Shown here piece by piece: positions 1-60,341 of a stretch of 64,000 nt of DNA (the stretch's first letter is position 1; each line of letters opens with the position of its first letter). The stretch lies in assembly GCA_963774955.1 (NCBI GenBank), contig CAVZGV010000003.1, forward strand, positions 771-64,770, in the 5' to 3' direction. Under the pieces are notes generated by a model. The model did no database searches, was not told the origin of the DNA, and worked only from the letters and a program-made list of their open reading frames with translations. The DNA is from Candidatus Falkowbacteria bacterium (lineage in GTDB: Bacteria > Patescibacteriota > Patescibacteriia > CAIXNZ01). The position numbers were made by a program, and so were the translations under genes.

Positions 1-1194
1 TCTGGTTGGGGCGATGCATTTTTAGAGCCCGCTTTAAAAATTTATTTAAAGCGCTGTCGCTAATTTTCAAATTACGTTGTTTGTTGATTTCCAGAGTAAA
101 TCCAGAATTTTATGAACATGTTGGCCGGATTTGGCAGAAATGAAGATAATCGGTGCCCAGGTCAAAAAGGCAAAATAACGGTATATATAGTTTGTATATT
201 CATTGATGGTTGTAACTTCTTTATCTTCAATTAAATCCCATTTATTGGCGATAATGATAATACTCAGTTTTGGACTGCATTAAAAGATCGCTGAGTTTAT
301 TGTCCTGCACGGTGAGTGGCTGGCTGATATCCAGAGACTAAAAGGCAGATGTTGGCACTCTGGGCATTATCAATGCTTTTTCGAACGGAAATTTTTTCTA
401 AGCCCTTGCCGATATTGGCTTGGCGGCGGATGCCGGCTGTATCAATTAGAGTAAAATTTTGTCCTTTATATACTAAGTCAGTATCTATAAACTCACGTGT
501 AGTAAAAGGGATGGGTGAAACAATGACTCGGTCTTCACCTATAATCGCATTTAATAATGATGATTTTCCTACATTAGGTTTGCCGATAATAGCAATTTTG
601 ATGGATTTTAGTTTTTCTAGTTTATTGGAGACTTTACTTTTTTTAATAATTTTTAATTTGTTCACTATTTCGTGTCCAATAAATCACCGGTGGCCATGCC
701 AGTTAAGGCTGAAACAAAAAAGGTGCGCCAAGTCCCAATTGATAAAAACTCAGCTGCCCCAGTACTGAAATTTAAGTGAGTCGGTTTTATTGGCGATTAA
801 AATGATATGTTTATTTGGGAAAAGTTTCTTTAAGGTTCTGGCTAATTCACGATCCTGGGGCAGGGGACCTGTCTGGATATCAACAGTAAATAAAATTAAA
901 TCGGCGTTTTTTAGGGCCGTTTGGGTCGTTGTTTGATAATTTCATTGGCAAAATCAATATTGGCTAAAGGGGCCAATTGTTTTAATTTTTTCTTGGGTAA
1001 AATAGTTTCAATACCGCCGGTATCGATTAATTCAAAATTAATACCCTGCCAGTAAACCTGGCCGATATTAAGGTCGCGTGTGGTGCCGGCAAGTTTGGAG
1101 GTTAAGGCCTTTGGTTGTTCGATTAAGCGGTTAAATAGTGTTGATTTGCCGATATTGGCACGGCCGAAAATAATAACGTTAGGTAGGCTTTCAT
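1..1194 (-). pseudogene. der: GTPase Der/EngA with two G domains. The N-terminus is at ~1194 and the gene runs off the window start. The frame is broken at least 4 times.
   Basis: Minus-strand translation gives LPNVIIFGRANIGKSTLFNRL...TTRD...LIDTGG (GD1) and IAIIGKPNVGKSSLLNAIIGEDRVIVSPIPFTTR...LIDTAGIRR...ANKWDL (GD2), with frame changes between pieces. ORF 297..665 is one fragment. Confidence 0.7.
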
Positions 1195-1213
1195 AAATTT
1201 TAAGTTGCGATTA

Positions 1214-2630
1214 TCAATAAAAAAACCGAATAAATATAGTGTCGTTGTTTTTTAATTTTAAAGAGAGTGACTGGAGATTTTGTCCGAGGATGATAATAAA
1301 ATCAGCCTCAATATTTTGAATGTTTAGCCATTCAGGTTTGTCTGTGGCTAGAGTAGCATTTAATTTTGTTTTAAGATCATCGAGATCTTCGCCTCTTTGG
1401 CCATTAGTTAAATCATAAATCAAAGTTGACTCAATATCTTTTTGTGCCGCATTGCCGATTTTAGTTATTTTATAGCCATGGCCTTTAAATCTACAGGTGC
1501 GATAGGCCAGCCCTTCTATTTTGGTACCGTTTTGTATTTCTATTTTTACAATTTGCTTGGCTTTTTCAGGATTGCCGGTTCAAAAACATTTTTCACCATT
1601 TTTTGTAATTGTTTAAACGACATGTCCTTGGGTAAAAGCAAGTAAGCGCCATTAATCATGGTCGCATAAAGAGGGCTGTCATTGGATGGCTCTAAAACCA
1701 AGTTGGTTATATTATTAGAATCAAAGTCTTTAGCTAATTTGTAAAATTTATAGATTTCCCAAGGTTCCAGATTGGTGGACACGTTTTCCTTATACATATT
1801 TAAGAACGCCGAAATTTTACTGTAGCTGATAAAAGTCGTAAAGGATAAGGCCTTGTCTTTGATGGCTGTCAGAATTTTTTGTTGTCTTTTACTCCTGGCA
1901 AAATCTGAACTTTCACCATTATTGCCATGTCGAGACCGGGCAAAGTTTAGGGCGGTTTCGCCATCCATTTTTTGTAAACCTTGTTCAAATGATACGGTTT
2001 GATAGCCATAGTTATCAGTGGGAAACTGAGAATCAGTAAAGGCAGTATCAACATAGACTTTAATACCATCCAATTCATTGATTAATTTTTCAAAGCCGGA
2101 AAAGTCAACTCGTATATAATAATTTATAGGCTGATCAAAAATCTGGCTGATACTCTCAGCTGACTGGGCACCGGCTCCTTTTTCTTTCATTTCCCCATAA
2201 TGATTGGCTTCATTGATTTTACGCCAGCCATAGCCGGGAATGGGAACAGATAAGTCGCGAGGGATAGAAACCATTGAAACTTTCTTGGTTGATGGTTGGA
2301 CGGAAACAAGAATGTTTGTATCGGTTAAATAGGGACCAGGATGTCCTTCTCCGCCCATGCCTGTGAGTAGGATATTTATGCGATCTTCTTTTTCTCCTGC
2401 CAGCAACTTGTCTTTGCTTATCGTGAAATTTAATGTTTGGAAGATATTGATTTTCTGATGTTCGCTGAAATGCTTTCACCGGACAGCAAGATTTCAAAGG
2501 AGAAAATAAATACGAAAATTGCCAAGAAAATCAGCGGGTAAAAAAGACACTTGGAGAACTCCCCGTTTCTTTGGCTGTTTTGGAGGTTTCGAATGAAATT
2601 GGTTAGGAAATTGATTTTAGGGGTTGACAT
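1214..2630 (-). pseudogene. LytR-CpsA-Psr (LCP) family cell-envelope phosphotransferase. It has an N-terminal TM anchor and is split over at least 3 frames.
   Basis: ORF 1546..2406 contains ILLTGMGGEGHPGPYLTDTNILVSV...MVSIPRDLSV...ALNFARSRH...SDFARSKRQQKIL, the LCP signature. ORF 2430..2630 supplies a TM helix upstream and ORF 1214..1423 a C-terminal continuation. Confidence 0.6.
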
Positions 2631-2794
2631 CTAAGGTCCTAACTAAAAAATTAGGAGAAATGATTTCTCTACTATTAATTTAAACAGAAAAATAGAAAAA
2701 GACAAGGAGTGGCGAGATTTGCTGCTATCTTTATGGTTTGTGCTATCATTAGATTAAACTTATTTTAATTTTTAGTCATTCAATCTATTATGCC

Positions 2795-3416
2795 CAGCAT
2801 CAAAAATGAGGATAGCCAATTTGAATGGAAGACCAAGTCAACATACGATTCCCTGGTAAAACCATAGGGGAATTTTTTATTGAGATTGTTAAGGTCGTCA
2901 TTATTTCTTTGGCCATTATTATTCCGGTGCGTTATTTTTTAATTCAGCCTTTTATGTTAAAGGTGCTTCCATGGAACCCAGTTTTCATGATCATGAATAT
3001 TTGATAATCAATGAAATCGGTTATCGTTTGGATCAGCCACAGCGCGGTGATATTATTGTTTTTCGTTATCCCAAAGATCCGAGTCAATATTTTATCAAAA
3101 GAATTATTGGCTTGCCTGGCGAAAAAGTTAAGATTAAAGATAATAAGGTTTATGTTTATAATGATAAATTCCCAATAGCGTTGAATTAAATGAAGAGGTT
3201 GTATATTGTGAAGATGTGGAGACAACTAATGTGGGTAAATCAGAATTTATTCTAGGCGCGGATGAATATTTTGTTATGGGGGATAATCGTGAGGCTAGTT
3301 TGGATTCTAGAGGATTTGGTCCAGTGCCAAAGCGGTTGATTATTGGCAAGGCCTGGGTTCGTGGCTGGCCATTTGATAAGATTGGTGTTTTTAAACCTCC
3401 ACAATATAATTTTTAA
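2795..3416 (+). pseudogene. lepB: Signal peptidase I, fragmented by frameshifts.
   Basis: GASMEPSFHDHEYL...RGDIIVFRYPKDPSQYFIKRIIGLPGEKV (S26 boxes B-D) in ORF 2971..3189; [17 protein letters not shown]...GKAWVRGWP (box E) in ORF 3216..3416. A one-T deletion in a T-run upstream breaks the TM / Ser-box region. Confidence 0.6.
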
Positions 3417-3572
3417 TTTTAGGGGGCCTTGCTTCGGATTGATTAAATAATTTTACGAACTAAACAAAAAGCCAAGATAAAAGTTTGATTTAATCCCGTA
3501 TGCCAAAAGTTAAGAAAGATCAAAAAAATGAAAAAAGTTAAAGGTGAAATTGTTAAGCAGATGAAAGCTGAA

Positions 3573-4878
3573 ATGAAGTTGATAGAATTTCAAAGTTTCA
3601 AAACAGACGCCGCAGGTTTTGCGTGGATTTAAAGATATTTTGCCAGGGGAGCAAAAATATTGGGATTTGTTGCGGGAAAAATTAGCTATTATTGTGCGTG
3701 ATTATGGATTTGAGCGAATCGATTTGCCGCTTGTTGGAAGAAACAGCGCTTTTTGTCCCGTTCTGTTGGTAAAGAAACAGATATTGTTGACAAAGAAATG
3801 TTTAATTTTATTGATAAAGGCGGTGAAAATGTTAGTTTAAGACCAGAAGCAACTGCTCAGTTGGTCGTGCCTACATTAATCACGGTATGTTTAATTTACC
3901 CCAGCCAGTTAAACTTTATTATGTAGGCCCAATGTTTCGTTATGATCGGCCGCAATCAGGTCGTTATCGACAGTTTAATCAGTGTCGGTTGTGAGGTTTT
4001 GGGCGATATGCATCCGGTTTTGGATGCGCAGATGATTATCATGGCCTATAATTTTTTCAAAGAATTGGTATTCATGTCACGGTATTCAGATTAATAGTAT
4101 TGGTTGCGTATCAATTGCCGCAAGGATTATAAAGTTCAATTGGTGAATTATTATAAAACTCAAAGAGCTGATTTATGCGATGATTGTAAAGACCGCTCGG
4201 TCAAAAATCCCTTGCGACTTTTAGATTGTAAGGAAGAAAAGTGTATTGCCATTAGTGAAGATGCGCCGCAAATTGTGGACTTGGTTATGCGATGAGTGCA
4301 AGAATCATTTTGTCAAAGTGCTTGAATTTCTAGATGAATTGGAAATTCCTTATAATCTAAATTCTTATTTGGTTCGCGGTTTGGATTATTATACTAAAAC
4401 CGTTTTTGAGGTTTGGTCTGAAAATGAGGAAAAGAAGGGTCAAAATGCCCTGGGTGGTGGTGGCCGCTATGATGGTTTGGTGGAAATGCTGGGCGGGCGG
4501 GCAACTCCGGCTGTGGGTTTTGCTCTAGGCTTAGAACGAATCATTTTAAAAATAAAGGAGTTGAATCTGCCTGTACCCGAGAAAGAAAAACGCGATCTTT
4601 TTGTAGGACAGTTGGGCGAAGCTTCAAAAAGAAAAACGTTAAAGCTTTATGAAACCTTAAGGGCCGAGGGGCTTAAAGTGGCGGAATGCTTTGCCAAGGA
4701 TGGTTTGAAAAGTCAGTTAGAAATTGCCAATAAATTGGGAGTAAAATATACCTTGATTTTAGGTCAGAAAGAAATGTCTGAAGGGACTATCATTTTGAGG
4801 GACATGGAAGCAGGTGTCCAGGAAACAATAAATTATAATAAAGTCGTTAAAGAAGTTAAAAAACGGTTGGAAATATAG
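3573..4878 (+). pseudogene. hisS: Histidyl-tRNA synthetase. The 5' two thirds are broken by several single-base indels; the C-terminal 210 aa (anticodon-binding domain) are intact.
   Basis: RGFKDILPGEQKYWDLL...[10 protein letters not shown]; then, after frame changes, [83 protein letters not shown], and the intact LVRGLDYYTKTVFEV...GGGRYDGL tail. Confidence 0.7.
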
Positions 4879-4985
4879 AGGATAGTACAATTCGAAAAAA
4901 AGTGCTAAGGATATTGCAGGTTGAAAAAGATCAAGCTGATGGCGCGTTAGCCCGTAAAATAGTGGAAGAAGAATCAAACAAATAA
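4879..4985 (+). repeat. Degenerate remnant of the yqeY 3' end, a scar of the segmental duplication.
   Basis: 4937-4985 (gatggcgcgttagcccgtaaaatagtggaagaagaatcaaacaaataa) matches 8373-8421, the end of the yqeY-like gene, with a few substitutions. Confidence 0.6.
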
Positions 4986-5003
4986 AAAATTCAGATAATT
5001 CCC

Positions 5004-7514
5004 ATGCACAAGCACTTTCTCTTGGCGCCAGTAAAAAGCCGGGAGCAAAAAAATCATAAATTTGACAATAAGACTGCCAAAGCATTATTGATAGTTGTTT
5101 TGTTTACGGCAGTTTTTTTGTTTGTGTCTCCGGCTTTAGCCCAAACTCAGGATATTACAGGTCTAAGCTATGCTCAATACACCGGGCTGGGTACTCAGGA
5201 TATCCGGATTACAATTGCTAATTTAATCAGGATATTTTTTGGACTTTTAGGATTGGTCGCCGTTGTGATTATACTTTACGGCGGTTTTTTATACATGACT
5301 TCGCAGGGAAACCCTGAGGTAATTCAAAAGGCGAAAAAAGTACTTATCGGCGCTTTTATCGGCCTGCTTATCTGTTTATTGGCTTTTGCTATTGTTCAAT
5401 TTATAATAACCGCTATTTTAGGCGGTGGCGGAGGCGGAGAAGGTGGAGTCGGCGGTGGCTGGGGCGGTGGCGGCGGCGCTTTAGGTTCAGGCATTATAGA
5501 AAGCCATTATCCGGCACGCGATGCAGTCAATATTCCGCGCAATACAAAAATTGCCGTTACTTTTAAAGAGGCAATGTGTCTGACTAGTATAGTCAATGCC
5601 GAGACTGGTAATAAGATTAACACAGATAATATAAGAATATATCCGACGCCGGAAGGCAACGCTGAGCCTGTTTATGTTCAGGACGTTGACGCTTCATATA
5701 CTGCGGACTTAAAGACTTTTGTTTTCAGGCCTGTTAATTATCTGGGCAGTTCAGGTGCGCCTATGCGTTATACTGTGGAATTGACTGAAGATATTACTAA
5801 ATTTGGCTGTAGTAATCCGGCCTTTGGAGTCTTCAGGAATTATGCCTGGAACTTTACTGTTTCTACGGAAATAGACAATACGCCACCGCAGATTAAGTCG
5901 GTCATTCCGTATCCGGCTGAAGAAGTTGATCGTAATAATATTGTGCAGATTAATTTTACCGAACCGATAGACCCGATGACTTTACGAGGGGTAGTGCAAC
6001 TGGACGGCGGTAATAATGTGACGGTGGGCAGTTTGCAGACCGGTACATATAATTACATAAATGTTTGTGCCGCGGCAGATTGTTCTGCGAGCAATAAATT
6101 TATTGCCGGTGAATTCAGATATTCAAATCAGTATCAGACTGTAGAATTTATCACTAATGATCTTTGCGGTAAAAACAGCTGTGGCGGTGATGTTTATTGT
6201 CTGCCGGGTTTGGCTGATATATCTGTCTTGGTTAAAGCCGCTAGTTTAATCCAGGCTGAAGAAAATACTGCGCAATTTCCGTATAACGGTCTGGTTGATA
6301 TGGCTGATAATTCTTTGGATGGAAACTTGGACACTAAATCCGCAGGACCAGGCACTACGCCATACAGCCTTAATGATAATTTGGTTGGCGGAGAATATGT
6401 GACTGCTGCCGGTGAAGGTGATAATGCTATTTGGGAGTTTAGTACGACCGATAAAATTGATTTGATACCACCGCAGATAAGTGTGACTACACCTTTGGCC
6501 AATACCAAGGATGTGGATCCTGACGATACTTATATGATTGATTTTGATAAAGTCATGATGTCCAGCACCTTAAAGCCTAACGGTCAGTATGATGATGGCA
6601 AAAACTATATTACCTTGATTCAGTCAGAAGTACCGGCCGGTTTCGAAGCAGGCTATTGGCTAGAAAAAGAGGAATTTACTGTGGCCAGCAGGCTGAGAAC
6701 CAGGGCCTTAATGAAAACATCTGGTTTGGGTGAAAATCTCAATTATGGCATGAAAATAAGTTCTGACGTTTTGGATATTAAACAAAATTGTTATTTGCCA
6801 TGTTCTGGTCCTGGTTGTGTCAGGCAAGAGGTGCCTGGCGGCAAGCCGGGTCAATATGTTCAAGGCGTGCCCTGGACCCCGCCAACCGGCGCTTACCCAA
6901 CCTGTAATTTAACCGGAACAACTTATAGGTCAATCGGTAATTTTAATGTCAGCTATAGCGAGGACGGGGCAGATAAAGTGTTTTATTTTAAAGCTTTTAG
7001 TCTTATCGACAGTGCCAATACAATTAATGATTTTTATCTTTATGGTAAAGGTATTCCCAGTTCAACAAATGTAATGAAGCATGGAGCTACTTTTACTCAA
7101 ATGATAGCCACAAATAGGGCAGCAACGATGGTATATTATAGCCAATCGGAAAATAAATATTATTTAGTTAATTTTTATGGCGGTTTTGATTCCGGCGGAA
7201 CCGCAAATGCGACAATTACCGGTGGCATTAGCGTCGCCATTTCCGATGATGCGGGTGAAACCAAGGTAACTAATGCGGGGTTAAAAATTATTTCCTCCTC
7301 TCAGTCCTGGACTAGATGGATGGATGGATCGGCAATTTATATCGGCGATGGTTCGGCGGATTTCAGCGTAAAAATGAATCTGACGAGTTTTAAAAAAACT
7401 TTACCGTCTAATCAAAAATGTACCGATGCAGAATGTGAATGGTTTTTATTTGGGCCAGAAGGCCCTGTAAAATTAACAATTCCAAGTGAAGTCACGATTA
7501 ATTTTACAAAATAA
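5004..7514 (+). CDS. Secreted pilin-module adhesin paralog A1 (836 aa). It has a signal peptide, a VirB2/TrbC-like two-helix hydrophobic hairpin, a poly-Gly linker and a Cys-containing beta-rich ectodomain.
   Basis: Intact 836-aa ORF. N-terminus: KALLIVVLFTAVFLFVSPALA | QTQD...TQDIRITIANLIRIFFGLLGLVAVVIILYGGFLYMTSQGNPEVIQKAKKVLIGAFIGLLICLLAFAIVQFI, then GGGGGGEGGVGGGWGGGGG. The 5' ~1.55 kb is nearly identical to 8440-9990. Confidence 0.8.
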   Translation: MHKHFLLAPVKSREQKNHKFDNKTAKALLIVVLFTAVFLFVSPALAQTQDITGLSYAQYTGLGTQDIRITIANLIRIFFGLLGLVAVVIILYGGFLYMTSQGNPEVIQKAKKVLIGAFIGLLICLLAFAIVQFIITAILGGGGGGEGGVGGGWGGGGGALGSGIIESHYPARDAVNIPRNTKIAVTFKEAMCLTSIVNAETGNKINTDNIRIYPTPEGNAEPVYVQDVDASYTADLKTFVFRPVNYLGSSGAPMRYTVELTEDITKFGCSNPAFGVFRNYAWNFTVSTEIDNTPPQIKSVIPYPAEEVDRNNIVQINFTEPIDPMTLRGVVQLDGGNNVTVGSLQTGTYNYINVCAAADCSASNKFIAGEFRYSNQYQTVEFITNDLCGKNSCGGDVYCLPGLADISVLVKAASLIQAEENTAQFPYNGLVDMADNSLDGNLDTKSAGPGTTPYSLNDNLVGGEYVTAAGEGDNAIWEFSTTDKIDLIPPQISVTTPLANTKDVDPDDTYMIDFDKVMMSSTLKPNGQYDDGKNYITLIQSEVPAGFEAGYWLEKEEFTVASRLRTRALMKTSGLGENLNYGMKISSDVLDIKQNCYLPCSGPGCVRQEVPGGKPGQYVQGVPWTPPTGAYPTCNLTGTTYRSIGNFNVSYSEDGADKVFYFKAFSLIDSANTINDFYLYGKGIPSSTNVMKHGATFTQMIATNRAATMVYYSQSENKYYLVNFYGGFDSGGTANATITGGISVAISDDAGETKVTNAGLKIISSSQSWTRWMDGSAIYIGDGSADFSVKMNLTSFKKTLPSNQKCTDAECEWFLFGPEGPVKLTIPSEVTINFTK
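5082..5500 (+). other. Pilin-like module (two hydrophobic helices around a short GNPE..K.KK loop) plus Gly-rich linker of A1.
   Basis: Hydrophobicity pattern read from the translation. Paralogous copies at 8518-8935 and 11125-11500. Confidence 0.55.
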
Positions 7515-7529
7515 ACAGAACCCTATTTG

Positions 7530-7612
7530 AGGGACATGGAAGCAGTGTCCAGGAAGCAATAAATTATAATAAAGTCGTTAAGGAAATCAAGAAAAGACTG
7601 GAAATGTAATGA
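7530..7612 (+). repeat. Remnant copy of the hisS 3' end (out of frame).
   Basis: tttgagggacatggaagcag-tgtccaggaagcaataaattataataaagtcgttaa matches hisS 4796-4860 with ~85-90% identity and a 1-nt gap. Confidence 0.65.
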
Positions 7613-7633
7613 TAATAATTTATCAATGAGGAA

Positions 7634-7662
7634 AGTGCTAAGGCTAGCCAAGCACTTTTTTT
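7634..7662 (+). terminator. Rho-independent terminator after A1.
   Basis: agtgct-aaggctagcca-agcact stem-loop followed by a 7-T run. Confidence 0.6.
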
Positions 7663-7682
7663 ATTTATAAACAGTTTTTAAT

Positions 7683-7711
7683 TTGACTGATTAGCCAAAT
7701 ATTGGTATATT
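7683..7711 (+). promoter_or_regulatory. Sigma70-type promoter for rpsU-yqeY.
   Basis: TTGACT, 17 nt, TATATT, about 30 nt upstream of the rpsU start. Confidence 0.5.
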
Positions 7712-7738
7712 TAAAGTATCTTAATTATTGAAAGGAGA

Positions 7739-7969
7739 ATGGTTATAATGACCGAAGTTAAAAGAAAAAAGAGCGAAACCTTTGAAAGCTTATTAAGAAG
7801 GTTTAATAAAAGAATGATTCAGAGCGGCAAAATTTTGCAGGCTAAAAAAATCAGATTTAAAACTAAGGGACCCAACAAAAATTTGGCCAAGCAATTAGCC
7901 CTAAGAAGATTGAAAATCAAGACTAAAAAAGACTATTTGAGAAAAATCGGCAAGTTAATTGAGGAATAA
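7739..7969 (+). CDS. rpsU: 30S ribosomal protein S21.
   Basis: Small basic protein ...RFNKRMIQSGKILQAKKIRFKTKGPNKNLAKQLALRR..., typical of S21. An AGGAG RBS at 7733-7737 favours the second ATG at 7748 as the real start. Confidence 0.75.
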   Translation: MVIMTEVKRKKSETFESLLRRFNKRMIQSGKILQAKKIRFKTKGPNKNLAKQLALRRLKIKTKKDYLRKIGKLIEE

Positions 7970-7974
7970 TTATA

Positions 7975-8421
7975 ATGCAGATGTCAATTTTACAGCAAAT
8001 AGATACTGATTTTCAGCAAGCCCGAAAAGATCAGAATCAAGACGCCTTATCCACCTTGCGTCTGATTCTGGCTGCTTTGAAATACGAACGAATTAAAAAA
8101 ATGGTTGATTTAACTGAAGATGATGTCATTAAAATATTAAAAACAGAGACAAAGAAACGAAAAGAATCAATAGTTGAATATGAAAAAGGCAACCGTCAGG
8201 ATCTGGTTGCCAAAGAACAAACTGAAATTAAAATAATTGATAAGTATTTGCCAGCTCAGTTAAGTGAGGATGAAATCAAAGTTAAAGTCAGGGCCATACT
8301 TAGTTCCCTGGAAGACAAAGATAATGCCGGTAAGGTTATGGGTAAAGTAATGGCAGAAATGAAGGGACAGGCCGATGGCACATTAGTTCGTAAAATAGTG
8401 GAAGAAGAATCAAACAAATAA
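7975..8421 (+). CDS. yqeY: GatB/YqeY domain protein.
   Basis: 148 aa, ...ILAALKYERIKK...KRKESIVEYEKGNRQDLVAKEQTEIKIIDKYLP...AGKVMGKVM..., the YqeY family pattern. Confidence 0.6.
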   Translation: MQMSILQQIDTDFQQARKDQNQDALSTLRLILAALKYERIKKMVDLTEDDVIKILKTETKKRKESIVEYEKGNRQDLVAKEQTEIKIIDKYLPAQLSEDEIKVKVRAILSSLEDKDNAGKVMGKVMAEMKGQADGTLVRKIVEEESNK

Positions 8422-8439
8422 AAAATTCAGATAATTCCC

Positions 8440-11028
8440 ATGCTTAAAAATTTTCTCTTGGCGCCAGTAAAAAGCCGGGAGCAAAAAAATCATAAATTTG
8501 ACAATAAGACTGCCAAAGCATTATTGATAGTTGTTTTGTTTACGGCAGTTTTTTTGTTTGTGGCTCCGGCTTTAGCCCAAACTCAGGATATTACAGGTCT
8601 AAGCTATGCTCAATACACCGGGCTGGGTACTCAGGATATCCGGATTACAATTGCTAATTTAATCAGGATATTTTTTGGACTTTTAGGTTTGGTCGCCGTT
8701 GTGATTATACTTTACGGCGGTTTTTTATACATGACTTCGCAGGGAAATCCTGAGGTAATTCAAAAGGCGAAAAAAGTACTTATCGGCGCTTTTATCGGCC
8801 TGCTTATCTGTTTATTGGCTTTTGCTATTGTTCAATTTATAATAACCGCTATTTTAGGCGGAGGCGGCGGCGGAGAAGGTGGAGTCGGCGGTGGCTGGGG
8901 CGGTGGCGGCGGCGCTTTAGGTTCAGGCATTATAGAAAGCCATTATCCGGCACGCGATGCAGTCAATATTCCGCGCAATACAAAAATTGCCGTTACTTTT
9001 AAAGAGGCAATGTGTCTGACTAGTATAGTCAATGCCGAGACTGGTAATAAGATTAACACAGATAATATAAGAATATATCCGACGCCGGAAGGCAACAACG
9101 AGCCTGTTTATGTCCAGGATGTTAACGCTTCTTATACTGATGACTTAAAGACTTTTGTTTTCAGGCCTGTTAATTATCTGGGCAGTTCAGGTGCGCCTAT
9201 GCGTTATACTGTGGAATTGACTGAAGATATTACCAAATTTGGCTGTAGTAATCCGGCTTTTGGAGTCTTCAGGAATTATGCCTGGAACTTTACTGTTTCT
9301 ACGGAAATAGACAATACGCCACCGCAGATTAAGTCGGTCATTCCGTATCCGGCTGAAGAAGTTGATCGTAATAATATTGTGCAGATTAATTTTACCGAAC
9401 CGATAGACCCGATGACTTTACGAGGGGTAGTGCAACTGGACGGAGGTAATAATGTGACGGTGGGCAGTTTGCAGACCGGTACATATAATTACATAAATGT
9501 TTGTGCCGCGGCAGATTGTTCTGCGAGCAATAAATTTATTGCCGGTGAATTCAGATATTCAAATCAGTATCAGACTGTAGAATTTATCACTAATGATCTT
9601 TGCGGTAAAAACAGCTGTGGCGGTGATGTTTATTGTCTGCCGGGTTTGGCTGATATATCTGTTTTGGTCAAAGCCGCCAGTTTAATCCAGGCTGAAGAAA
9701 ATACTGCGCAATTTCCGTATAACGGTCTGGTTGATATGGCTGATAATTCTTTGGATGGTAATTTAGATAATAAATCTGCGGGGCCAAGCGCTACGCCTTA
9801 TAGCCTCAACGATAATTTGGTGGGCGGCGAATATGTAACTGCCGCCGGTGAGGGTGATAATGCTATCTGGGATTTTAGTACGACCGATAAAATTGATTTG
9901 ATACCGCCTCAGATCAGCGTGACTACTCCTTCGGCCAATACAAAAGATGTTGACCCTGACGATATTTATACAATTGATTTTGATAAGGTCATGATGTCCA
10001 GCACTTTGAAACCAAACGGGAATTATAACGGACAAACCACAGAGACTATTTATATAAATAATTTATTGGATGGATTGCAGGGTTACTATCGTTTTACGAC
10101 TAGTGCTATAGACGATTCTGGTGCTAGCCATGATGGTACCCTTATGGGTACGGCTTCCATTGTAAATGGAGAATTAAACGTTACAGGCAGTAGTAATAGC
10201 TCTGTTACTACCAGCTTTAAAATAGATCAAACATCCGGTAAGACTGCTACTTTTTGCGCTTGGGCAAATCCCAGAGGAGCGACGACTTGGCAGGGTAATG
10301 ATTTAATTTCTACAGATAATGCCGGTTATGATTGGGCAATTGATATTATACCGTCAGGATATTGGCGGGTGGCAACCGGTAAAAATTATTGGACTGCTAA
10401 TAATCAATTTCCAGCTAAATTGAACCAGTGGCAGTATGTTTGCGCTGTATTTACGACTGACAATGTTTATATATATGTAGATGGCATCGCCGCCAGTTAT
10501 GGTCAGGCGCCCGGGTATGATAGTAGTGTTAATTTTTTTACTATTGGCGCAAATCCTTCATTTCCCCCTGAAGTTTTTGACGGTAAAATTGACGCTGTTG
10601 TTGTTTATAACCGGGCTTTGGGTCCTGAAGAAATAACTGCTTTATATAATTTGGGTAAAGACGGAGATGTCTTGAGTTATCAGGGGCAACCAGTCACTCA
10701 GGTTCAGGAAGGTGAAAATTATATTACGTTAATTCAGTCGGCAGTCCCTGCCGGTCAGGAATCAGGCTATTGGATAGAAAAGGAGGAAATTACTGTGGCT
10801 AGCATACTGAGAACCAGAGCCTTAATGAAAACAACGGGTTTAGGTGAAAATCTCAGATATGGCCTGAAAATAAGTTCTAATGTTTTAGATATTAAACAAA
10901 ATTGTTATTTGCCGTGTTCCGGCCCTGGCTGTGTCAGGCGAGAAGTGCCTGGTGGTAAGCCGGGTCAATATGTGCAGGGGACACCTTGGCAGGGTACTTA
11001 CCCGACCTGCAATATCCCGCCGCAGTAA
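8440..11028 (+). CDS. Pilin-module adhesin paralog A2 (862 aa). Same N-terminal 510 aa as A1, but it carries an inserted LamG/ConA-like lectin domain and lacks the A1 C-terminal extension.
   Basis: Intact ORF. The first ~1.55 kb and 40 nt of upstream sequence are nearly identical to A1. A LamG_3-like block lies at ~10060-10665 (HDGTLMGTASIVNGEL...WQYVCAVFTTDNVYIYVDG...FDGKIDAVVVYNRALGPEEITALYN). Confidence 0.8.
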   Translation: MLKNFLLAPVKSREQKNHKFDNKTAKALLIVVLFTAVFLFVAPALAQTQDITGLSYAQYTGLGTQDIRITIANLIRIFFGLLGLVAVVIILYGGFLYMTSQGNPEVIQKAKKVLIGAFIGLLICLLAFAIVQFIITAILGGGGGGEGGVGGGWGGGGGALGSGIIESHYPARDAVNIPRNTKIAVTFKEAMCLTSIVNAETGNKINTDNIRIYPTPEGNNEPVYVQDVNASYTDDLKTFVFRPVNYLGSSGAPMRYTVELTEDITKFGCSNPAFGVFRNYAWNFTVSTEIDNTPPQIKSVIPYPAEEVDRNNIVQINFTEPIDPMTLRGVVQLDGGNNVTVGSLQTGTYNYINVCAAADCSASNKFIAGEFRYSNQYQTVEFITNDLCGKNSCGGDVYCLPGLADISVLVKAASLIQAEENTAQFPYNGLVDMADNSLDGNLDNKSAGPSATPYSLNDNLVGGEYVTAAGEGDNAIWDFSTTDKIDLIPPQISVTTPSANTKDVDPDDIYTIDFDKVMMSSTLKPNGNYNGQTTETIYINNLLDGLQGYYRFTTSAIDDSGASHDGTLMGTASIVNGELNVTGSSNSSVTTSFKIDQTSGKTATFCAWANPRGATTWQGNDLISTDNAGYDWAIDIIPSGYWRVATGKNYWTANNQFPAKLNQWQYVCAVFTTDNVYIYVDGIAASYGQAPGYDSSVNFFTIGANPSFPPEVFDGKIDAVVVYNRALGPEEITALYNLGKDGDVLSYQGQPVTQVQEGENYITLIQSAVPAGQESGYWIEKEEITVASILRTRALMKTTGLGENLRYGLKISSNVLDIKQNCYLPCSGPGCVRREVPGGKPGQYVQGTPWQGTYPTCNIPPQ
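10060..10665 (+). other. LamG / concanavalin-A-like lectin domain cassette, present in A2 and absent from A1.
   Basis: Motif pattern typical of the LamG_3 family, ending in the ...iDeV.iYNrALs.eEI..lY box. Confidence 0.6.
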
Positions 11029-11052
11029 ATTTTAATAAATTGATTTTAATTT

Positions 11053-14000
11053 ATGAGGAGGTTCAATATAAAAAATTTGTTTCTTTTAGGCCTGATTTGT
11101 TTGGGTTTATTTGTGGTTGTTAATTTCGTTAGTGCTCAGGGTTCGACCATTGATCCTGGACTTAATTATGTCGGCCCTAATATTGGCATGGGTACTCAGG
11201 ATATTAGAATTACTATTGCCAATATCATCAGAATACTTTTAGGTATTTTGGGGCTGGTTGCGGTGATAATCATTATTTACGGCGGAGTTTTGTATATGAC
11301 AGCGGCCGGTGAGGTAGAAAAAATAAAAAAGTCCAAGCAATTGATAATCGGCGCGGTTATTGGCTTAATTATTGTTTTATCAGCTTTTACCATCGCCAGT
11401 TTTATAATCAGCAGTATTCAGAACGCAACCGGACCCGGAGGAGGGCCAGGAGAAGGGCCAGGGCCAGGACCAGGACCGGGACCAGGGCCAGGACCGTTAA
11501 CTGGTTTTTGTCAGGATCCGGATTTGACTTCAGATGCCCCTTATATTTGCAGCTTATCGCCGAAACAGGCGAAAAAAGGTGATTACGTTACTATATTGGG
11601 CGGTAAATTTTTAGATTATGATAATGCCAATAGTAAAGTAGTTTTTGTAAAAGAAGGTGATACAACAGAAACAGAATATCCGGCCACTATTGTTTTATGC
11701 GCCAGTAATCCATCCTGGAAAGACTATGAAATTATAATTGAAGTGCCTAATGATTTGCCCGCAGGACCCGGCTTTAATATTTATGTAAAAAATGCCAAGG
11801 GGACCAGTAAAGATAAGCTTGTCGGCGCTTTAGATCCAAGCCATAAATTTACTTTGCTTGACGGTCAGCCTGGCCCGGGTATTGCTTGTTTAGAGCCTGA
11901 TGCCGCCAATAAGAATTTATCAATAAAAGTTTACGGTAAGCGCTTTGGAGCAGAGCAGGGTACCAGTAAATTCACCTTTACTGAAAATGCCTTAGCCGAA
12001 ACAATCGTCGGCTGGAGTGATACTGAATTAACCAGCGTTAGTGTGCCGGCAACTGCAATTAGCGGCAATGTTTTTGTCACCGTCTCAGATCAAAATAGTA
12101 ATGGTGTGTTTTTTAGATACACCTGTAATGTCAGTGATGATTGCGTCTCCACCTGTTGTACTGAAACGTATTTCGGAAAAAGCTGCGCAGCTGCTAATTA
12201 TTGTCTGCCTGGTCCTGGGGAAAGCTGTAACGGAGATACTACAGGCGGAACTTGTCAGCCGACCGAATGTCGGCCAGACTCTGTCTGTGATACAACGACT
12301 TGTGATTGTCGCTATCCACAGTCAGGTGATCCTTGCGATGCAGACCTCAACACAGCAGCCTGTCAGCCTGACGCCGCTAAATGCGGTTCAGGTTTATACT
12401 GTGCGCAAGCGAGCTGTACTTGTGCGGAAATGCCGCAAATAACCAAAGTTGAACCCAATGACGGCGCTCCTGGTAATTTTGTGACTATTTGGGGCAAGGG
12501 TTTTGAAAATAATATGGTCAAACCTGAGGATATAGTTTTTAAATCTGATTTTGATTCCGAGGCCGGCAAAGTAGGCTGGAGCTTTGATACCGGAGTATCC
12601 GGGGAGGGTGAAATCCGTACGGATGGTAAGTCTTATTCAGGTTCATCTAATATTTATCTGCGCATGCCCCAGACTGCCGAGGCTAATGATCTCTTATCAG
12701 CTTATTTGGAAGTAGCTGAAGCTTTGAATCCGGATTTGCGGCTCAATGAGGAAGATGTTCTTGTTTTTCAGTTTAAGTACAAAGGAACAGTGTCTCAAGG
12801 TTCAAGTTTTAGCCTTGGTTATATAGATAATAACAATCAAATTCATACTTGGGCTTATATGTCAGTAGGGACTTTTGAAGATTGGGATACTTATAATTAC
12901 GTAATTTATTCTATCCCTATTAATGCGGAAAAAATATTTATAACATTAAGGAGTACAGGAACTCAAGCAGAAGATAGTGAAATGTATATTGATGATGTTC
13001 AGGCATTTAGATTGCCTGAATACGGCGAAGTTAGGTTTTGCGGCCAGGGTGGCTGTGGCAATTCTGATGATAGAATTGCCCGTATGCCTATATTTGTGGC
13101 ACCTTTTTGTTCAGCTGACGGAATTTGGACTGACAATCAGATAATTGTTGAGGTCCCCCTCGGCGCTGGCTCCGGTCCACTTCAGGTGACAACAGTTAGC
13201 GGACTCCAGGATGCAACCAATGATGAAAATGGTGAGCAACTTTCAGATTTTGAGATTAATACTATTAAGAGGCCGGCTATGTGCAGACTATTTCCTGCTC
13301 AAGGTGTCTATGAACAAAGAGTTGTAATCGGAGGTATAAATTTCGGGACAGCTCTAGGTGAAGTTTTAATCGGCGGTACAAGTTTTAATACTATGTTGAG
13401 ATCTACAGTCCCGCCTTCGCGTTGGCCTAATTATATTTGGTATGACCAGATTATTGCTCAGTTAGCGGTACCGTTATTAAGCGCAGGTACTTACCCTGTG
13501 CAAGTGAAAGTTGGTGATGAATTCAGTAATCCCATGAATTTTAAAGTTTTACCGAACGTAGGCGCCCCGCATATTGACGCGATTGACCCGGTTCAAGGTC
13601 AACCAGGTCAGTATATTACTATCTTGGGCAGTAATTTCGGTAATCAACCCGGTTCAGTTAAATTTAATAATAATGAGCCATTGAAGGATAACTGGACATC
13701 TGGTGATATTTCTTTTCCGGCTCAGTGTCAAAGCAATTATTGGCATGATACATATATCGTGGTAAAGGTTCCGTCCGGACTGTCTACCGGCTTGATTGAT
13801 GTCGTGGTTAAGGCCGGTGAAGTATTTTCCAATACCACAAAATTCACGATTTGTGCTGCCGGTTCAGGCACTTGTCCATTGACCCCGGGAATTTGTGCTA
13901 TAAATCCCAAACAGGGGCCGGTGGGTTTAAGCGGAGTTACTGTTTATGGTGAAAACTTTGGTGATTATTTAAATACTAAAAGTCAAATCGTTTTTAATGA

Positions 14001-17000
14001 AGTTCCTGTCAGCGATGTTATTGGCTACTGGACTAATACCATGATTGGTCTGGGTTCGAATTTAACAGCAGCAGCTAATCCGCCGATCGTTGTGCCGGAG
14101 ACTACCAGCGGTCCGGTGCAGGTAACTGATAAAAACGGTATCCTTAGTAATACTATTAAATTTGAAGTTTCTGACTGCCGTATTGATGCGACAGTTTGTG
14201 CTGAAGGAACTAAATGTTGCGGTACTGGATCTTGTCTGGCTGAATGTCCGGTGGCAACTGTTGCCTCTTGTTCATATAATTGGAGCTTTACCACGGGAAC
14301 CAGGACACCTTATTTCGGACCTCCTTATGTGGTTGAAGATTCCGGTTGTACCAATAATACCCAAAGTCCGTCGCCCTGGATTTCTTCGGAAAATAATTGT
14401 GTTGATGCTTTGATTTCCGCCAGATTCAGACAGCCTGCGCAAAACGGAGATGTAGATGCCAATATTTTAACCTCCACCTTAATCCCCGATAATATTAAGG
14501 TTGTACCCTGCGGTAGCGCCGATGTTTTTGATGATGCAAATTGTGAGACAGCGGGCATCGCTGGTCGCGATATTAATCCGATTGAAGTGGAAAACCCCCA
14601 TGTCTTAGTGACTGGCGGTCCTACGGTAACCAATAAATTTACTTTTTATCCCAAGTCTTCCTTACTGCCAAATACTTGGTACAAGGTGGTTTTAAAAAGT
14701 AATCCCAGCACTAACCTTGGTATTAAAACAAATAATGATGTCTATCTGGACGGTGATAAAGACAGCCTGGACGGGGGAGATTACAGCTGGTATTTCAAAA
14801 TCAGAAATTCGGCGGATGAATGTCCGATTGATAAAGTTTTGGTTTCCCCTCCAACTGCCAAGCTTACTTTAATTACTCAAACGCAGGAATATAGCTCGTA
14901 TCCTATTGCCATGAATTGCAATATTTTAAATCCGGCTAATTATACCTGGAATTGGTGGAAGAAATATAGTGATGGCCATGAAGAAAATGCCGCTGACACT
15001 GATGGCGGTTATGGCGTGGCCACGCTGGCGCCAAAAACTCCGCCGCCTCAATTTATTGGCAGCTATAGCTATAAACAGCTGGCCACACCCAAAAAACAAG
15101 GCTTGGTCTATGTGGCGGTTAATATTTTTCCGAGTGAGCCTGCTAAATATAAAGAAGATACCAATAATACGCTGGTGGTTGATTTTAATATTCCCAGTAT
15201 AATTGATTTTTATCCCAAAGACGGTATTAATCAGGCGGAAGTTAATTCTTATGTAACAATTGAAGGTATAAATTTTGGTCAAAGTCAGGGCGACAGTCAG
15301 GTTTTATTCGGCGAAGCGCAAGCTCAGCTGGCAGACTGTGTTGATTCTTGGACAGATAAAAAGATTAAAGTAATTGTGCCCAAGGCCGGGCCCATTCAAA
15401 GTTCAGGCTTAAAAACACTGGCGACGCCCGAGCCAGTCAGCTTTAATAATAATCTTATTTTAGGCTATAATTTTGATGAAAATGATGATGTCTTGGTCGC
15501 TGATATTACCGGCAATTATCAGGGTGAGATTGTTAACGGATCCAAAGTAGATTCACAATTTAATAAAGCTTTACAGTTTAACGGCACTGATACTTATGTT
15601 CGAATCGGAGGCAATATCCAAGCAGCTTCTGGCAGTATTGAATTTTGGTTTAAACCCGAAGCCAGCGGAGTTCTATTTTCAGCTATGGGGCAGGCAGGCA
15701 ATGATTTTACTATCAGTTATAATGCTGCTGCCACGTTGGGAGTTATTAAAAATAATCAATGGAATCATGTAGTCTATACCTGGGATCAGGCCAAAATCGA
15801 AGACAATTTGTATATAAACGGGATAAGGCTAAGCGGAATTAATAATCCGGGCCTTGATATTGCCGGCGCTTTTATCGGGGTGAATAAAATCAGTTATATG
15901 TTGGGAACCCAAGAATCCGGCGGGTTAAGAATCAATTATTTTAAAGGGCAACTTGATGATTTTGCCATTTATAATAAGGTTTTAAGTCAGCAGGAAGTTT
16001 GGACAAATTTCGGGCTGACACCGGGACAAATTGTTTTGTTAAATTTTGAAGGAACTGGGTCGGAAATTTTAGATTCATCACTTAATAATTTTGTCGGTAT
16101 GGCTGTTGACAACCAGAATGTAAGTTTCCGGACAGCTGAAGGCAAATATGGTCAGGCCATTACTTTTGATAATAATAATCGAATAAATATTATAAATAAT
16201 CCCTCTTTGTCTTTTGATAATCAGTTTACTATTGAGGGCTGGTTTAAAATTCCCACCTTAAATTCTAACACTATTTTCGAGGCGAATAATATTAAACTGG
16301 GGGTTAACTCCGGGAATCTTAGGCTGGAATTGAAGCTTGATGTCGGCAATCGCTATCTGAATTTAGGCTTAGTTACGACGGGGGCAGACAAAAATTTTGA
16401 TATTAATGCCTGGAATTATTTTGCCGGGGTCTATGACGGAGAAAAAATCAAACTTTATTTGAATAGTTCAGAAAAAGAATATGCTACGGTTGGCAAGATA
16501 TTTCAGGAAGCAGACTTTAATAAAGCATATATCGGGGGTATCGGTAGTTCTTTTCAAGGCTCCTTGGATAATTTAGCCCTATATAATCGGGCATTATCCT
16601 CGGCGGAAATTAATAGCCGTTTGGGCGCTAAAGATAAATCTTTTATTAAAGTGGTTACCAGTTTTGGCCAGGCTATAAGCGATTTTAATAATAATGGCAT
16701 CAAAGATCCGGGTGAAATTTATACTTATAGTAATAATATTTATCCTTTCTTGTGTGCCTTGCAGCCAAATTTCGGGACTGAAGGGACAACTATCAACGTC
16801 AGTGGTGATAATCTTGGTAATAATAATAAAACTATTTATCAGAACAAACAATACGGTATTGGCAGCTATATTAAGTTCAATTATCCGAGTTTGCCTGTTT
16901 TGGACAACAACAAAATAAAGACCTGGACTAATAAGGCTCTGAGTTATGTAAATCCATTTACCAACGTGGACAGTCCAGTTATCAAGGTTTTTGCCACCAT

Positions 17001-60226: not shown

Positions 60227-60341
60227 ACCAAGCCCAACTTTATAACCTTATTCTAAAATTAACATATGGGACTCAAATTCCGGAATAAAATTAAAAAAAC
60301 ATCTGCGAATCTCGGCTTTTGTCTTTGTATTTTTCGGTAGC

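Follow-up and report, generated by a model that had tools for sequence, protein, structure and literature searches.

The 64,000-nt stretch of Candidatus Falkowbacteria bacterium DNA analyzed here (assembly GCA_963774955.1, contig CAVZGV010000003.1, positions 771 to 64,770; the window) contains two copies of a gene for a large pilin-domain protein, A1 and A2, within a conserved housekeeping locus. A1 lies between hisS and rpsU, and A2 lies between yqeY and the gene for a giant protein. A sequence-only reading of this DNA had described A1 and A2 as adhesins, a label that their domains suggest, and had described the arrangement as a recent amplification of an adhesin family. The account favored here, with moderate confidence, is that an old, lineage-specific duplication and a deletion were followed by gene conversion, and that A1 is a recombinant. 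The genes of the locus are:

3592-4878, + strand: full-length hisS, stop codon TAG at 4876-4878 (tblastn with the hisS of the relative L001, DNA alignment, Pfam)
5004-7514, + strand: A1, 836 aa (open reading frame (ORF) listing, Pfam)
7748-7969, + strand: rpsU (S21), 73 aa from the ATG at 7748, or 76 aa from 7739
7975-8421, + strand: yqeY, 148 aa, intact (Pfam YqeY, 1e-39)
8440-11028, + strand: A2, 862 aa (ORF listing, Pfam)
11053-20286, + strand: giant pilin-domain protein, 3077 aa, with T4SS_pilin, TIG, and three LamG domains

A T4SS_pilin/TrbC (VirB2-like) two-helix domain stands at the start of A1, of A2, and of the giant ORF, the T4SS_pilin match being above the gathering score in Pfam. 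The C-terminal half of hisS (4246-4875) matched tRNA-synt_His and HGTP_anticodon. The Pfam match of the rpsU product to S21 was weak; the product is 96% identical to that of the gene adjoining hisS in L001.

Self-blastn of positions 3400-11100 against the window, together with a repeat finder and a three-way alignment, identified three direct-repeat blocks, which are far beyond chance similarity. In the first block, 4794-4913 corresponds to 7526-7646 (81% identity over 123 columns, 4 gaps, E 6.6e-24), and comprises the last 82 nt of hisS, the stop codon, a spacer (17 nt in the first copy), and the left arm of a terminator, AAAGTGCTAAGG. In the second, self-blastn aligned 4932-6583 with 8368-10019 at 95.8% identity, ungapped and at an offset of 3436, and in the third it aligned 6601-6865 with 10715-10979 at 86% identity and an offset of 4114. 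This dot-plot-type comparison agrees with the sequence-only reading, which had placed an ~85-nt copy of the hisS 3' end after A1 (7530-7612, inside the 7526-7646 repeat), a ~50-nt copy of the yqeY 3' end before A1 (4937-4985, measured here as the 54 nt at 4932-4985, the last 17 codons and stop), and an identical 19-nt leader before both A start codons (measured here as 18 nt). The repeats, remnants, and junctions around A1 are:

4794-4913, + strand: repeat copy 1, the hisS 3' end and the left terminator arm only; 4794-4850 near-identical to copy 2, 4851-4913 diverged
4914-4931, + strand: putative deletion junction J2, 18 nt between the left terminator arm and the yqeY remnant, of uncertain origin
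4932-4985, + strand: yqeY 3' remnant, 17 codons and TAA; its counterpart is the start of the second repeat block in intact yqeY
4986-5003, + strand: leader, 18 nt AAAATTCAGATAATTCCC, identical in both copies (8422-8439) and in L001, followed by the A start codon
7515-7525, + strand: putative duplication junction J1, 11 nt ACAGAACCCTA separating the A1 stop from the hisS remnant
7526-7646, + strand: repeat copy 2, hisS 3' remnant, stop, spacer, and left terminator arm
7630-7665, + strand: intact intrinsic terminator, hairpin and U-run, -18.6 kcal/mol, z -4.4
7683-7711, + strand: promoter-like site upstream of rpsU, TTGACT-17-TATATT, TG-extended, a consensus match only

The hisS remnant after A1 has no gene body upstream and carries a 1-nt deletion, and is therefore a dead remnant. 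The yqeY remnant before A1 is 71% identical to intact yqeY over its first 21 nt (6 differing sites) and 100% identical over its last 33 nt. J1 is a novel head-to-tail join, so that the order of the locus is hisS 3' end, J2 and the yqeY remnant, A1, and then hisS 3' end, terminator, rpsU, yqeY, and A2, all in the same orientation. Microhomology at J1 and J2 was not clear, being at most a 'CTAT'-like 3-4 nt that is uninformative. The 18-nt filler at J2 was considered as a relic of rpsU or of the 5' part of yqeY, but its best local match, to rpsU at 7835-7849, was 13/15, a score reached by 22 of 1000 shuffles, and this origin was judged unconvincing.

Related loci were obtained with a yqeY probe and by look-ups of A homologs (L001, L002, L024-L027, and L058-L061). 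L001 is from the Parcubacteria metagenome-assembled genome (MAG) GCA_026395755, in which yqeY is 80% identical, and L002 is from the Falkowbacteria. Examination of these loci by tblastn and by their called genes showed the order lepB-hisS-rpsU-yqeY-A-giant, with a single A gene, in eight full loci (L001, L002, L025, L026, L027, L058, L059, and L060) and, in part, in L024. No gene was found between hisS and rpsU in any of these relatives. The single-copy arrangement looked for by the sequence-only reading is thus present in every relative examined, and the extra A1 is therefore specific to the lineage of the window.

This gene order (2790-20286 in the window) is strongly conserved across Parcubacteria, Falkowbacteria, and other Patescibacteria, and puts large pilin-domain surface proteins directly downstream of the S21 and YqeY genes. 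The giant ORF is the conserved neighbor downstream of A in all of the relatives. Several of the relatives contain GC-rich inserts of 40-190 nt in their AT-rich spacers (L057 2381-2568, L025 about 1605-1775, L026 about 1005-1140), and in L024 such an insert is found in-frame inside yqeY; these may be small mobile or structured repeat elements.

Comparison with the relatives also shows what happened to the terminator. The 7630-7665 terminator is the ancestral hisS terminator, which alignments show to be conserved in L001. In the window, the complete hairpin and U-run are found only after the hisS remnant, and full-length hisS is followed by the left arm alone. In the left copy, homology passes the hisS stop codon and reaches the left terminator arm, after which it resumes only at the yqeY 3' end, and A1 is flanked by the hisS stop codon on one side and the one intact hisS terminator on the other. 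The history proposed in the sequence-only reading, a tandem duplication of hisS 3' end, rpsU, yqeY, and A and then deletion from the left copy of rpsU and the greater part of yqeY, fits both this layout and the gene order of the relatives. A segmental tandem duplication of the hisS, terminator, and rpsU-yqeY-A region would have copied a unit that began 82 nt before the hisS stop and ended 11 nt past the A stop. A later deletion in the left copy would then have taken out the right terminator arm along with the promoter of rpsU, rpsU itself, and yqeY up to its last 17 codons, and would have left A1 between hisS and the sole remaining hisS terminator.

Insertion of a mobile element, whether an insertion sequence, a miniature inverted-repeat transposable element, or an integrative element, was also considered and was rejected. 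No terminal inverted repeats were found at the ends of the insert, no Rfam RNA was found at its borders, and ARAGORN identified no tRNA genes in the 64-kb window. No recombinase gene accompanies the insert, in which A1 is the sole ORF in the ORF listing. Furthermore, the repeat that flanks the A1 insert is 120 nt of gene sequence, unlike a short target-site duplication.

The two copies differ greatly in divergence along their length. Mismatch positions showed that 4953-5007 is identical between the copies and that 5016-6322 is about 98.6% identical, while from 6323 on A1 and A2 are about 86% identical, with differences mainly at third codon positions. Synonymous (dS) and nonsynonymous (dN) divergence between A1 and A2, estimated by the Nei-Gojobori method, and the segments that they define are:

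4953-6322, + strand: putative gene-conversion tract, at least 98.6% identical to 8389-9758; dS 0.03-0.05; old patches at 5008-5015 and 5661-5705
5016-5660, A1 versus A2: dS 0.026, dN 0.002
5706-6322, A1 versus A2: dS 0.046, dN 0.0
6323-6865, + strand: putatively unconverted, 'old' part of A1, 86% identical to A2 at 9759-10019 and 10715-10979
6323-6583, A1 versus A2: dS 1.0, dN 0.038
6601-6865, A1 versus A2: dS 0.56, dN 0.073

A maximum chi-squared analysis placed the breakpoint at 6323, with none of 2000 permutations reaching the observed value (Fisher p 2e-16). The same 5' codons have a dS of about 1.2 to the nearest sampled relative (L057) and about 0.7 to L001, and the value of about 1.2 indicates that constraint does not explain the near-identity of A1 and A2. 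The simplest reading of this mosaic is a gene-conversion tract of about 1.37 kb, from the yqeY remnant through A codon 440, laid over an older duplication. Non-reciprocal conversion would have re-homogenized 4953-6322, which includes the end of the yqeY remnant, the leader, and A codons 1-440, as well as the first 57 nt of the hisS repeat. At the 5' edge the direction would have been from A2 to A1, the one pointer to this being that the tract overlaps functional yqeY.

Outside of this tract, A1 and A2 appear to have been separate for a long time. L057 differs by a dS of 1.1-1.8 and a dN of 0.16-0.19, and the old A1/A2 divergence is about one third of that on the dN scale and about half on the dS scale. 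Since the divergence in the old part is below that from L057, the duplication, or the last homogenization of the 3' part, would post-date the split from that relative, yet would be far from recent. The dN/dS of the old part is 0.04-0.13, which indicates that both A1 and A2 have been under purifying selection. In neighbor-joining trees A1 grouped with A2 in both the converted and the old partitions; the branch depth alone differed, and no taxon fell between the two dates. The hisS repeat is similarly uneven, with 1 substitution and 1 indel in its first 57 nt, 9 substitutions in its last 28 nt (Fisher p 1e-4), and a spacer that is about 60% identical. Diverged sequence persists around J2 and beside the places where only one A gene has a LamG domain or a C-terminal tail, and the interiors of the long homologous stretches are homogenized, a pattern that would be expected if conversion tracts stop short of heterology.

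Within the tract, codons 2-4 of A (5008-5015 versus 8444-8451) differ at 5 of 8 nt, encoding MHKH in A1 and MLKN in A2, amid about 180 nt of perfect identity. The A1 version of these codons is identical to that of L024.

These data bear directly on the claim that the duplication was recent. A single recent tandem duplication with a deletion, in which near-identity would simply reflect the short time elapsed and no gene conversion would be needed, agrees with the layout of the repeats and with the 99-100% identity over 4953-5007 and most of 5016-6322. However, one recent event cannot yield segments of both 99% and 86% identity, dS jumps twenty-fold at 6323 within one ORF, and identity is 65-71% in the hisS repeat, in the spacer, and in the first 21 nt of the yqeY remnant. 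The domain architectures of A1 and A2 differ as well, and this explanation is considered very improbable. The description as 'recent' in the sequence-only reading is therefore not upheld, given the mosaic identity, the dS of 0.56-1.0 outside of the tract, and the different architectures; 'amplification' of an adhesin family is also too strong, because there is only one extra gene. The 45-55-nt near-identity that had been stressed is explained by its position at the 5' edge of the putative conversion tract.

A1 and A2 share a T4SS_pilin/TrbC N-terminus, a Gly-rich linker, and two Big_5 Ig-like domains, and differ beyond these. A1 has a Cys-rich C-domain, no LamG, and a 205-aa β-rich tail at its C-terminus, while A2 has a Laminin_G_3 insert at nt 10020-10714 and is tail-less, ending in ..CNIPPQ like its ortholog P0003. 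P0003, the A gene product of the L001 MAG, has a LamG insert at the same site as A2, with 75% nucleotide identity like its flanks, and ends tail-less in ..CNIP. The next relatives (P0004, P0006, and P0010) have no LamG and are tail-less, with short Pro-rich termini. Across the LamG site A1 reads YDDGKNYITL, like the uninserted P0004, and after ..YPTCNL it continues into the 205-aa domain. Thus the copies are unequal in content and age, with LamG in A2 only, the tail in A1 only, and dS from 0.03 to 1.0 along the repeat, and events beyond plain tandem duplication are needed. The only LamG domains in the window and the fetched loci that resembled that of A2 were those of the giant ORF, and these matches were weak.

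The A1-specific 3' end is:

6866-7514, + strand: 3' end of A1, matched neither in A2 nor elsewhere in the window; the tail segment searched and modeled is 6897-7511

An exhaustive HMMER search found the tail in only six of 1.84 billion representative clusters, the best being P0005 (47%), and about 13 of the top 120 A homologs carry it. No paralog of the tail was found in the window or in the fetched related loci. The GC content of the tail, overall and at third codon positions (GC3), is unremarkable, and composition does not mark it as foreign. A ColabFold model of the tail is all-β (predicted local distance difference test score, pLDDT, 78), and no significant match to it was found in the PDB. 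Tail-type A genes are found at the same position after yqeY in other lineages (L058 and L061). In neighbor-joining trees of the protein body the tail-type proteins fell in distant clades, and both partitions gave the topology (P0006,(P0004,(P0003,(A1,A2)))). Nucleotide identity shows the same closeness, at 86% between A1 and A2 versus 73-78% to L057.

A parent of the A2 type could not have supplied the tail, which makes A1 a recombinant whose body and tail have different histories. Two routes are possible from the sequences. An A2-type duplicate may have lost LamG and gained the tail by recombination, with the switch at about 6866-6880, where the A1 sequence 'WTPPTGAYPTCNL' resembles that of tail-type proteins, or a tail-type gene, older or foreign, may have been overwritten from its 5' side by A2-like sequence.

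In L060, an additional 382-aa gene between A and the giant ORF (8001-9149, P0123) consists only of a pilin N-terminus and a tail, which indicates that the tail behaves as a portable module at this locus; identity of P0123 to A1 is 45% in the pilin domain and 28% in the tail. In two unrelated giant proteins, P0121 (1616 aa) and P0122 (2626 aa), a motif like residues 100-156 of the tail recurs 8-9 times in tandem at a period of about 179 aa.

The source is a single 565-kb metagenomic contig, and the quality of the first part of the window is low. Compared with L001 and L059, positions 1-4287 contain 33 window-specific frameshifting indels of 1-2 nt, both insertions and deletions, outside of homopolymers. 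They break der/engA (1-1190, minus strand), a LytR_cpsA_psr gene (1259-2630, minus strand), lepB (2790-3413), and the first two thirds of hisS. From 4288 to 64000 there are no such indels, and ORFs of up to 3233 aa are intact. Substitution divergence in 1-4287 is normal, and the indels look like those of a low-coverage, unpolished long-read consensus, possibly at a contig end, rather than pseudogenes. For hisS, which has about 10 frameshifting 1-2-nt indels before 4288 and a clean last 590 nt, pseudogenization was rejected for the same reasons, and the indels are probably consensus errors.

Two strain variants of the A locus could conceivably have been stitched together in tandem near such a contig end, and the indels in the first 4.3 kb, typical of low-coverage long-read consensus, lend this some plausibility. 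However, no indels are found from 4288 onward, the junctions consist of truncated genes and half a terminator rather than allelic joins, and the differences between A1 and A2 are codon-structured. An independent k-mer assembly was also available in the form of a 1979-nt Logan contig (ERR15459710), which was compared through its encoded proteins and their spacing. Its rpsU and yqeY proteins are identical to those of the window, and a truncated 357-aa ORF ends 234 nt before rpsU. Exactly this distance separates the stop of A1 (7514) from the start of rpsU (7748), whereas hisS upstream would give about 140 nt, as in L001. The ends of the contig map to 6440 and 8418, inside runs shared exactly by A1 and A2 (6438-6469, 32 nt, and 8389-8443, 55 nt), the places at which a k=31 graph is expected to break if there are two copies. 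The Logan assembly thus repeats the A1 3' end, hisS remnant, rpsU, and yqeY spacing and breaks at k-mers that A1 and A2 share. The two-copy structure is probably not an assembly artifact, and the chance that strain variants were stitched together is rated as slight.

Several observations weigh against an old duplication followed by gene conversion. A plain duplicate of A should have LamG and no tail, as A2 and P0003 do, but A1 shows the opposite states, so at least two further events, loss of LamG and acquisition of the tail, would be required. The window and the related loci yielded no source for the tail, and the best of the 1.84 billion representatives is only 47% identical. The young 57 nt of the hisS repeat abut J1 directly, which a simple conversion model does not readily accommodate. 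Over the last 28 nt of that repeat the copies differ from each other at 9 sites but from L001 at only 5 and 4; of the nine, six are synonymous and another exchanges one stop codon for another, though one copy is dead. The numbers are small, but this pattern would fit two diverging functional genes better than decay in place. Finally, independent support, from the geometry of the Logan contig, reaches J1 only and not J2 (4913/4932).

The pattern in the last 28 nt is the main hint that A1 came from elsewhere. DNA of a related Patescibacterium, carrying hisS-rpsU-yqeY and a tail-type, LamG-less A, would have recombined within hisS and been joined illegitimately at 7526, giving a pseudo-tandem with a donor-derived left copy; rpsU and yqeY would have been deleted as redundant, and the 5' part of A1 later converted by A2. 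The tail and the absence of LamG would then be explained without extra events, and tail-type A genes do occur at exactly this locus in L058 and L061. In addition, most of the differences in the 'dead' hisS remnant are synonymous, the two copies of the hisS repeat resemble each other no more than they resemble L001, and A1 codons 2-4 and six of the nine sites in the patch at 5661-5705 match L024, not A2. The old part of A1 is a difficulty. Over 6323-6865, A1 and A2 are 86% identical with a dN of 0.04-0.07, versus 73-78% and a dN of 0.16-0.18 between A2 and its ortholog in the nearest sampled genome, and a donor that close should share LamG and the lack of a tail, a conflict that persists unless older conversions are invoked. 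The bodies of known tail-type proteins are only 38-46% identical, too distant for efficient homologous conversion, and neither the GC nor the GC3 of the tail is unusual. Capture of a foreign allele through hisS homology is considered unlikely, yet it is the main rival.

Another possibility is that A1 and A2 are an ancient pair under long-term concerted evolution, duplicated before LamG was inserted and the tail lost in the line of A2. Repeated conversions anchored at the 5' end would have overwritten the body of A1, and the relatives would have lost A1 through the 120-nt hisS repeats. Discordant histories would then be expected only in the segments without a homologous partner, the tail and LamG, and the graded identity, from 99% to 86% to none, would also follow. 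The flanking direct repeats would permit precise loss of A1, and the second pilin-plus-tail gene beside A in L060 (P0123, there called B) shows that two-gene states exist elsewhere. On the other hand, each of the eight or nine relatives examined would have to have lost A1 independently, a neutral hisS remnant of 85 nt would be unrecognizable by now unless it was also converted, and the conversions must have skipped LamG twice. This history is regarded as doubtful, more so than foreign capture. The favored sequence of events is still an old, lineage-specific duplication, a deletion in the left copy, and later gene conversion.

The deletion may have changed how A1 is expressed. Because it took the right arm of the hisS terminator, A1 is probably transcribed with hisS, by read-through. 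A2 would be transcribed within an rpsU-yqeY-A2-giant unit, as the gene arrangement suggests. A short ORF (4902-4985) ends 18 nt upstream of A1, and together with the conserved leader it may preserve the translational context that A has after yqeY. The leader of A1 and A2 has no Shine-Dalgarno sequence. L001 has the same leader before A, AAAAATTCAGATAATTCCC-ATG, and the ..TCCC-ATG context is kept in all relatives. Starts of the form ..AA(T)TCCC-ATG without a Shine-Dalgarno sequence were observed at 4986-5006 and 8422-8442 in the window, at 10341-10361 in L001, and in L024, L025, L026, and L059; rpsU and yqeY, unlike the A orthologs, have clear GGAG-type sites. The conservation of this context suggests an unusual or coupled initiation signal.

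The A genes are not the only surface-protein genes in the window. Very large predicted surface proteins (3077, 1436, 1797, 825, 3233, and 1176 aa) are encoded in a run at 11053-32407 and 50525-63872, with LamG, TIG, Big_5, CBM_4_9, Lcl_C, DUF4215, and TSP3 domains, and the ORF at 20177-24487 overlaps the end of the 3077-aa ORF by 110 nt. In A1 (5427-5478), A2 (8863-8914), and the giant ORF (11440-11500), the pilin domain is followed by short low-complexity tracts, GGN-rich (Gly) and CCA/GGA (Pro-Gly), which could be slippage-prone linkers.

Duplication with loss of redundant genes is a textbook process in bacteria. The present case is similar in its same-orientation repeats, its novel join of the A stop to the hisS 3' end, its rpsU-yqeY removal junction, and its single-copy relatives, but unlike the simple process it is not recent, its copies differ (LamG versus tail), and its junctions show no clear microhomology. 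Concerted evolution of bacterial paralogs by gene conversion is also well known, for example in tufA/tufB of Salmonella and in rRNA operons. As in those cases, there are sharp-edged tracts of synonymous near-identity within diverged paralogs; the tract in the window extends past the ORF into flanking non-functional homology, and divergence is kept beside the heterologies. What differs is that the partners are surface-protein genes 3.4 kb apart in direct orientation, and that only the 5' half, encoding the anchor and stalk, is homogenized. Homology-facilitated illegitimate recombination in natural transformation is known from Acinetobacter and Streptococcus pneumoniae. One end in a housekeeping gene (hisS) and another, illegitimate join that leaves a short duplication of recipient sequence would resemble it, but a distant donor would not have given an A1 body so similar to the resident A2, and no donor was identified. 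The events at the A1/A2 locus are of ordinary kinds, paralog formation and then concerted evolution, and represent no new mechanism.

The A proteins can also be compared with the arrays of VirB2-like pilin genes described in Patescibacteria, of which there are 441, with 2-11 genes, a mean identity of 25%, and a maximum of 54% (PMC12102498). These arrays have been discussed as possible devices for host range or variation (PMC12102498). A1, A2, and the giant ORF all have a PF18895/PF04956 pilin-like N-terminus and form one array, in which A2 and the giant ORF are adjacent, and the idea that paralog diversity may serve adaptation of host range (PMC12102498) fits a pair like A1 and A2 with the same stalk and different tips. 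However, the proteins in the window are multidomain proteins of 836-3077 aa rather than small pilins, their array is in a conserved rpsU-yqeY operon, and A1 and A2 are 95-97% identical over their shared part, versus the reported maximum of 54% (PMC12102498). No VirB4-like domain, as would mark association with a virB4-type type IV secretion system, was found in the ORFs scanned across the 64-kb window.

The outcome of these events would be two surface proteins with one membrane anchor and stalk (pilin, Gly linker, and Big_5) and different distal modules, a lectin-like LamG in A2 or an all-β tail in A1. A more speculative possibility, thought improbable at present, is that this is a functional two-tip system, in which the conserved anchor and stalk are kept identical by conversion to fit the same assembly machinery, and the LamG or tail binding module is supplied from separate transcription units, hisS read-through and the rpsU operon. 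If this were true, the 120-nt and 1.4-kb direct repeats would allow reversible loss of A1, tip swapping, and A1 amplification in the population. This would be a simple recombination-based host-range switch in an episymbiotic bacterium of the candidate phyla radiation (CPR), possibly seeded by capture of a foreign allele.

The current understanding of the mechanisms of duplication and conversion is unchanged by the A1/A2 case. Its value is as a worked example, in an uncultured, genome-reduced Patescibacterium, of the birth of a surface-protein paralog at a conserved housekeeping locus, and of a post-duplication deletion that would have rewired transcription by placing A1 between hisS and its terminator. 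The conserved operon of rpsU, yqeY, and a pilin-domain protein may itself merit attention. The case is also a caution that gene conversion can make an old duplicate seem recent, and that local near-identity is a poor basis for dating 'amplifications'. Finally, it suggests that these tiny genomes have enough homologous recombination to homogenize 1.4 kb.

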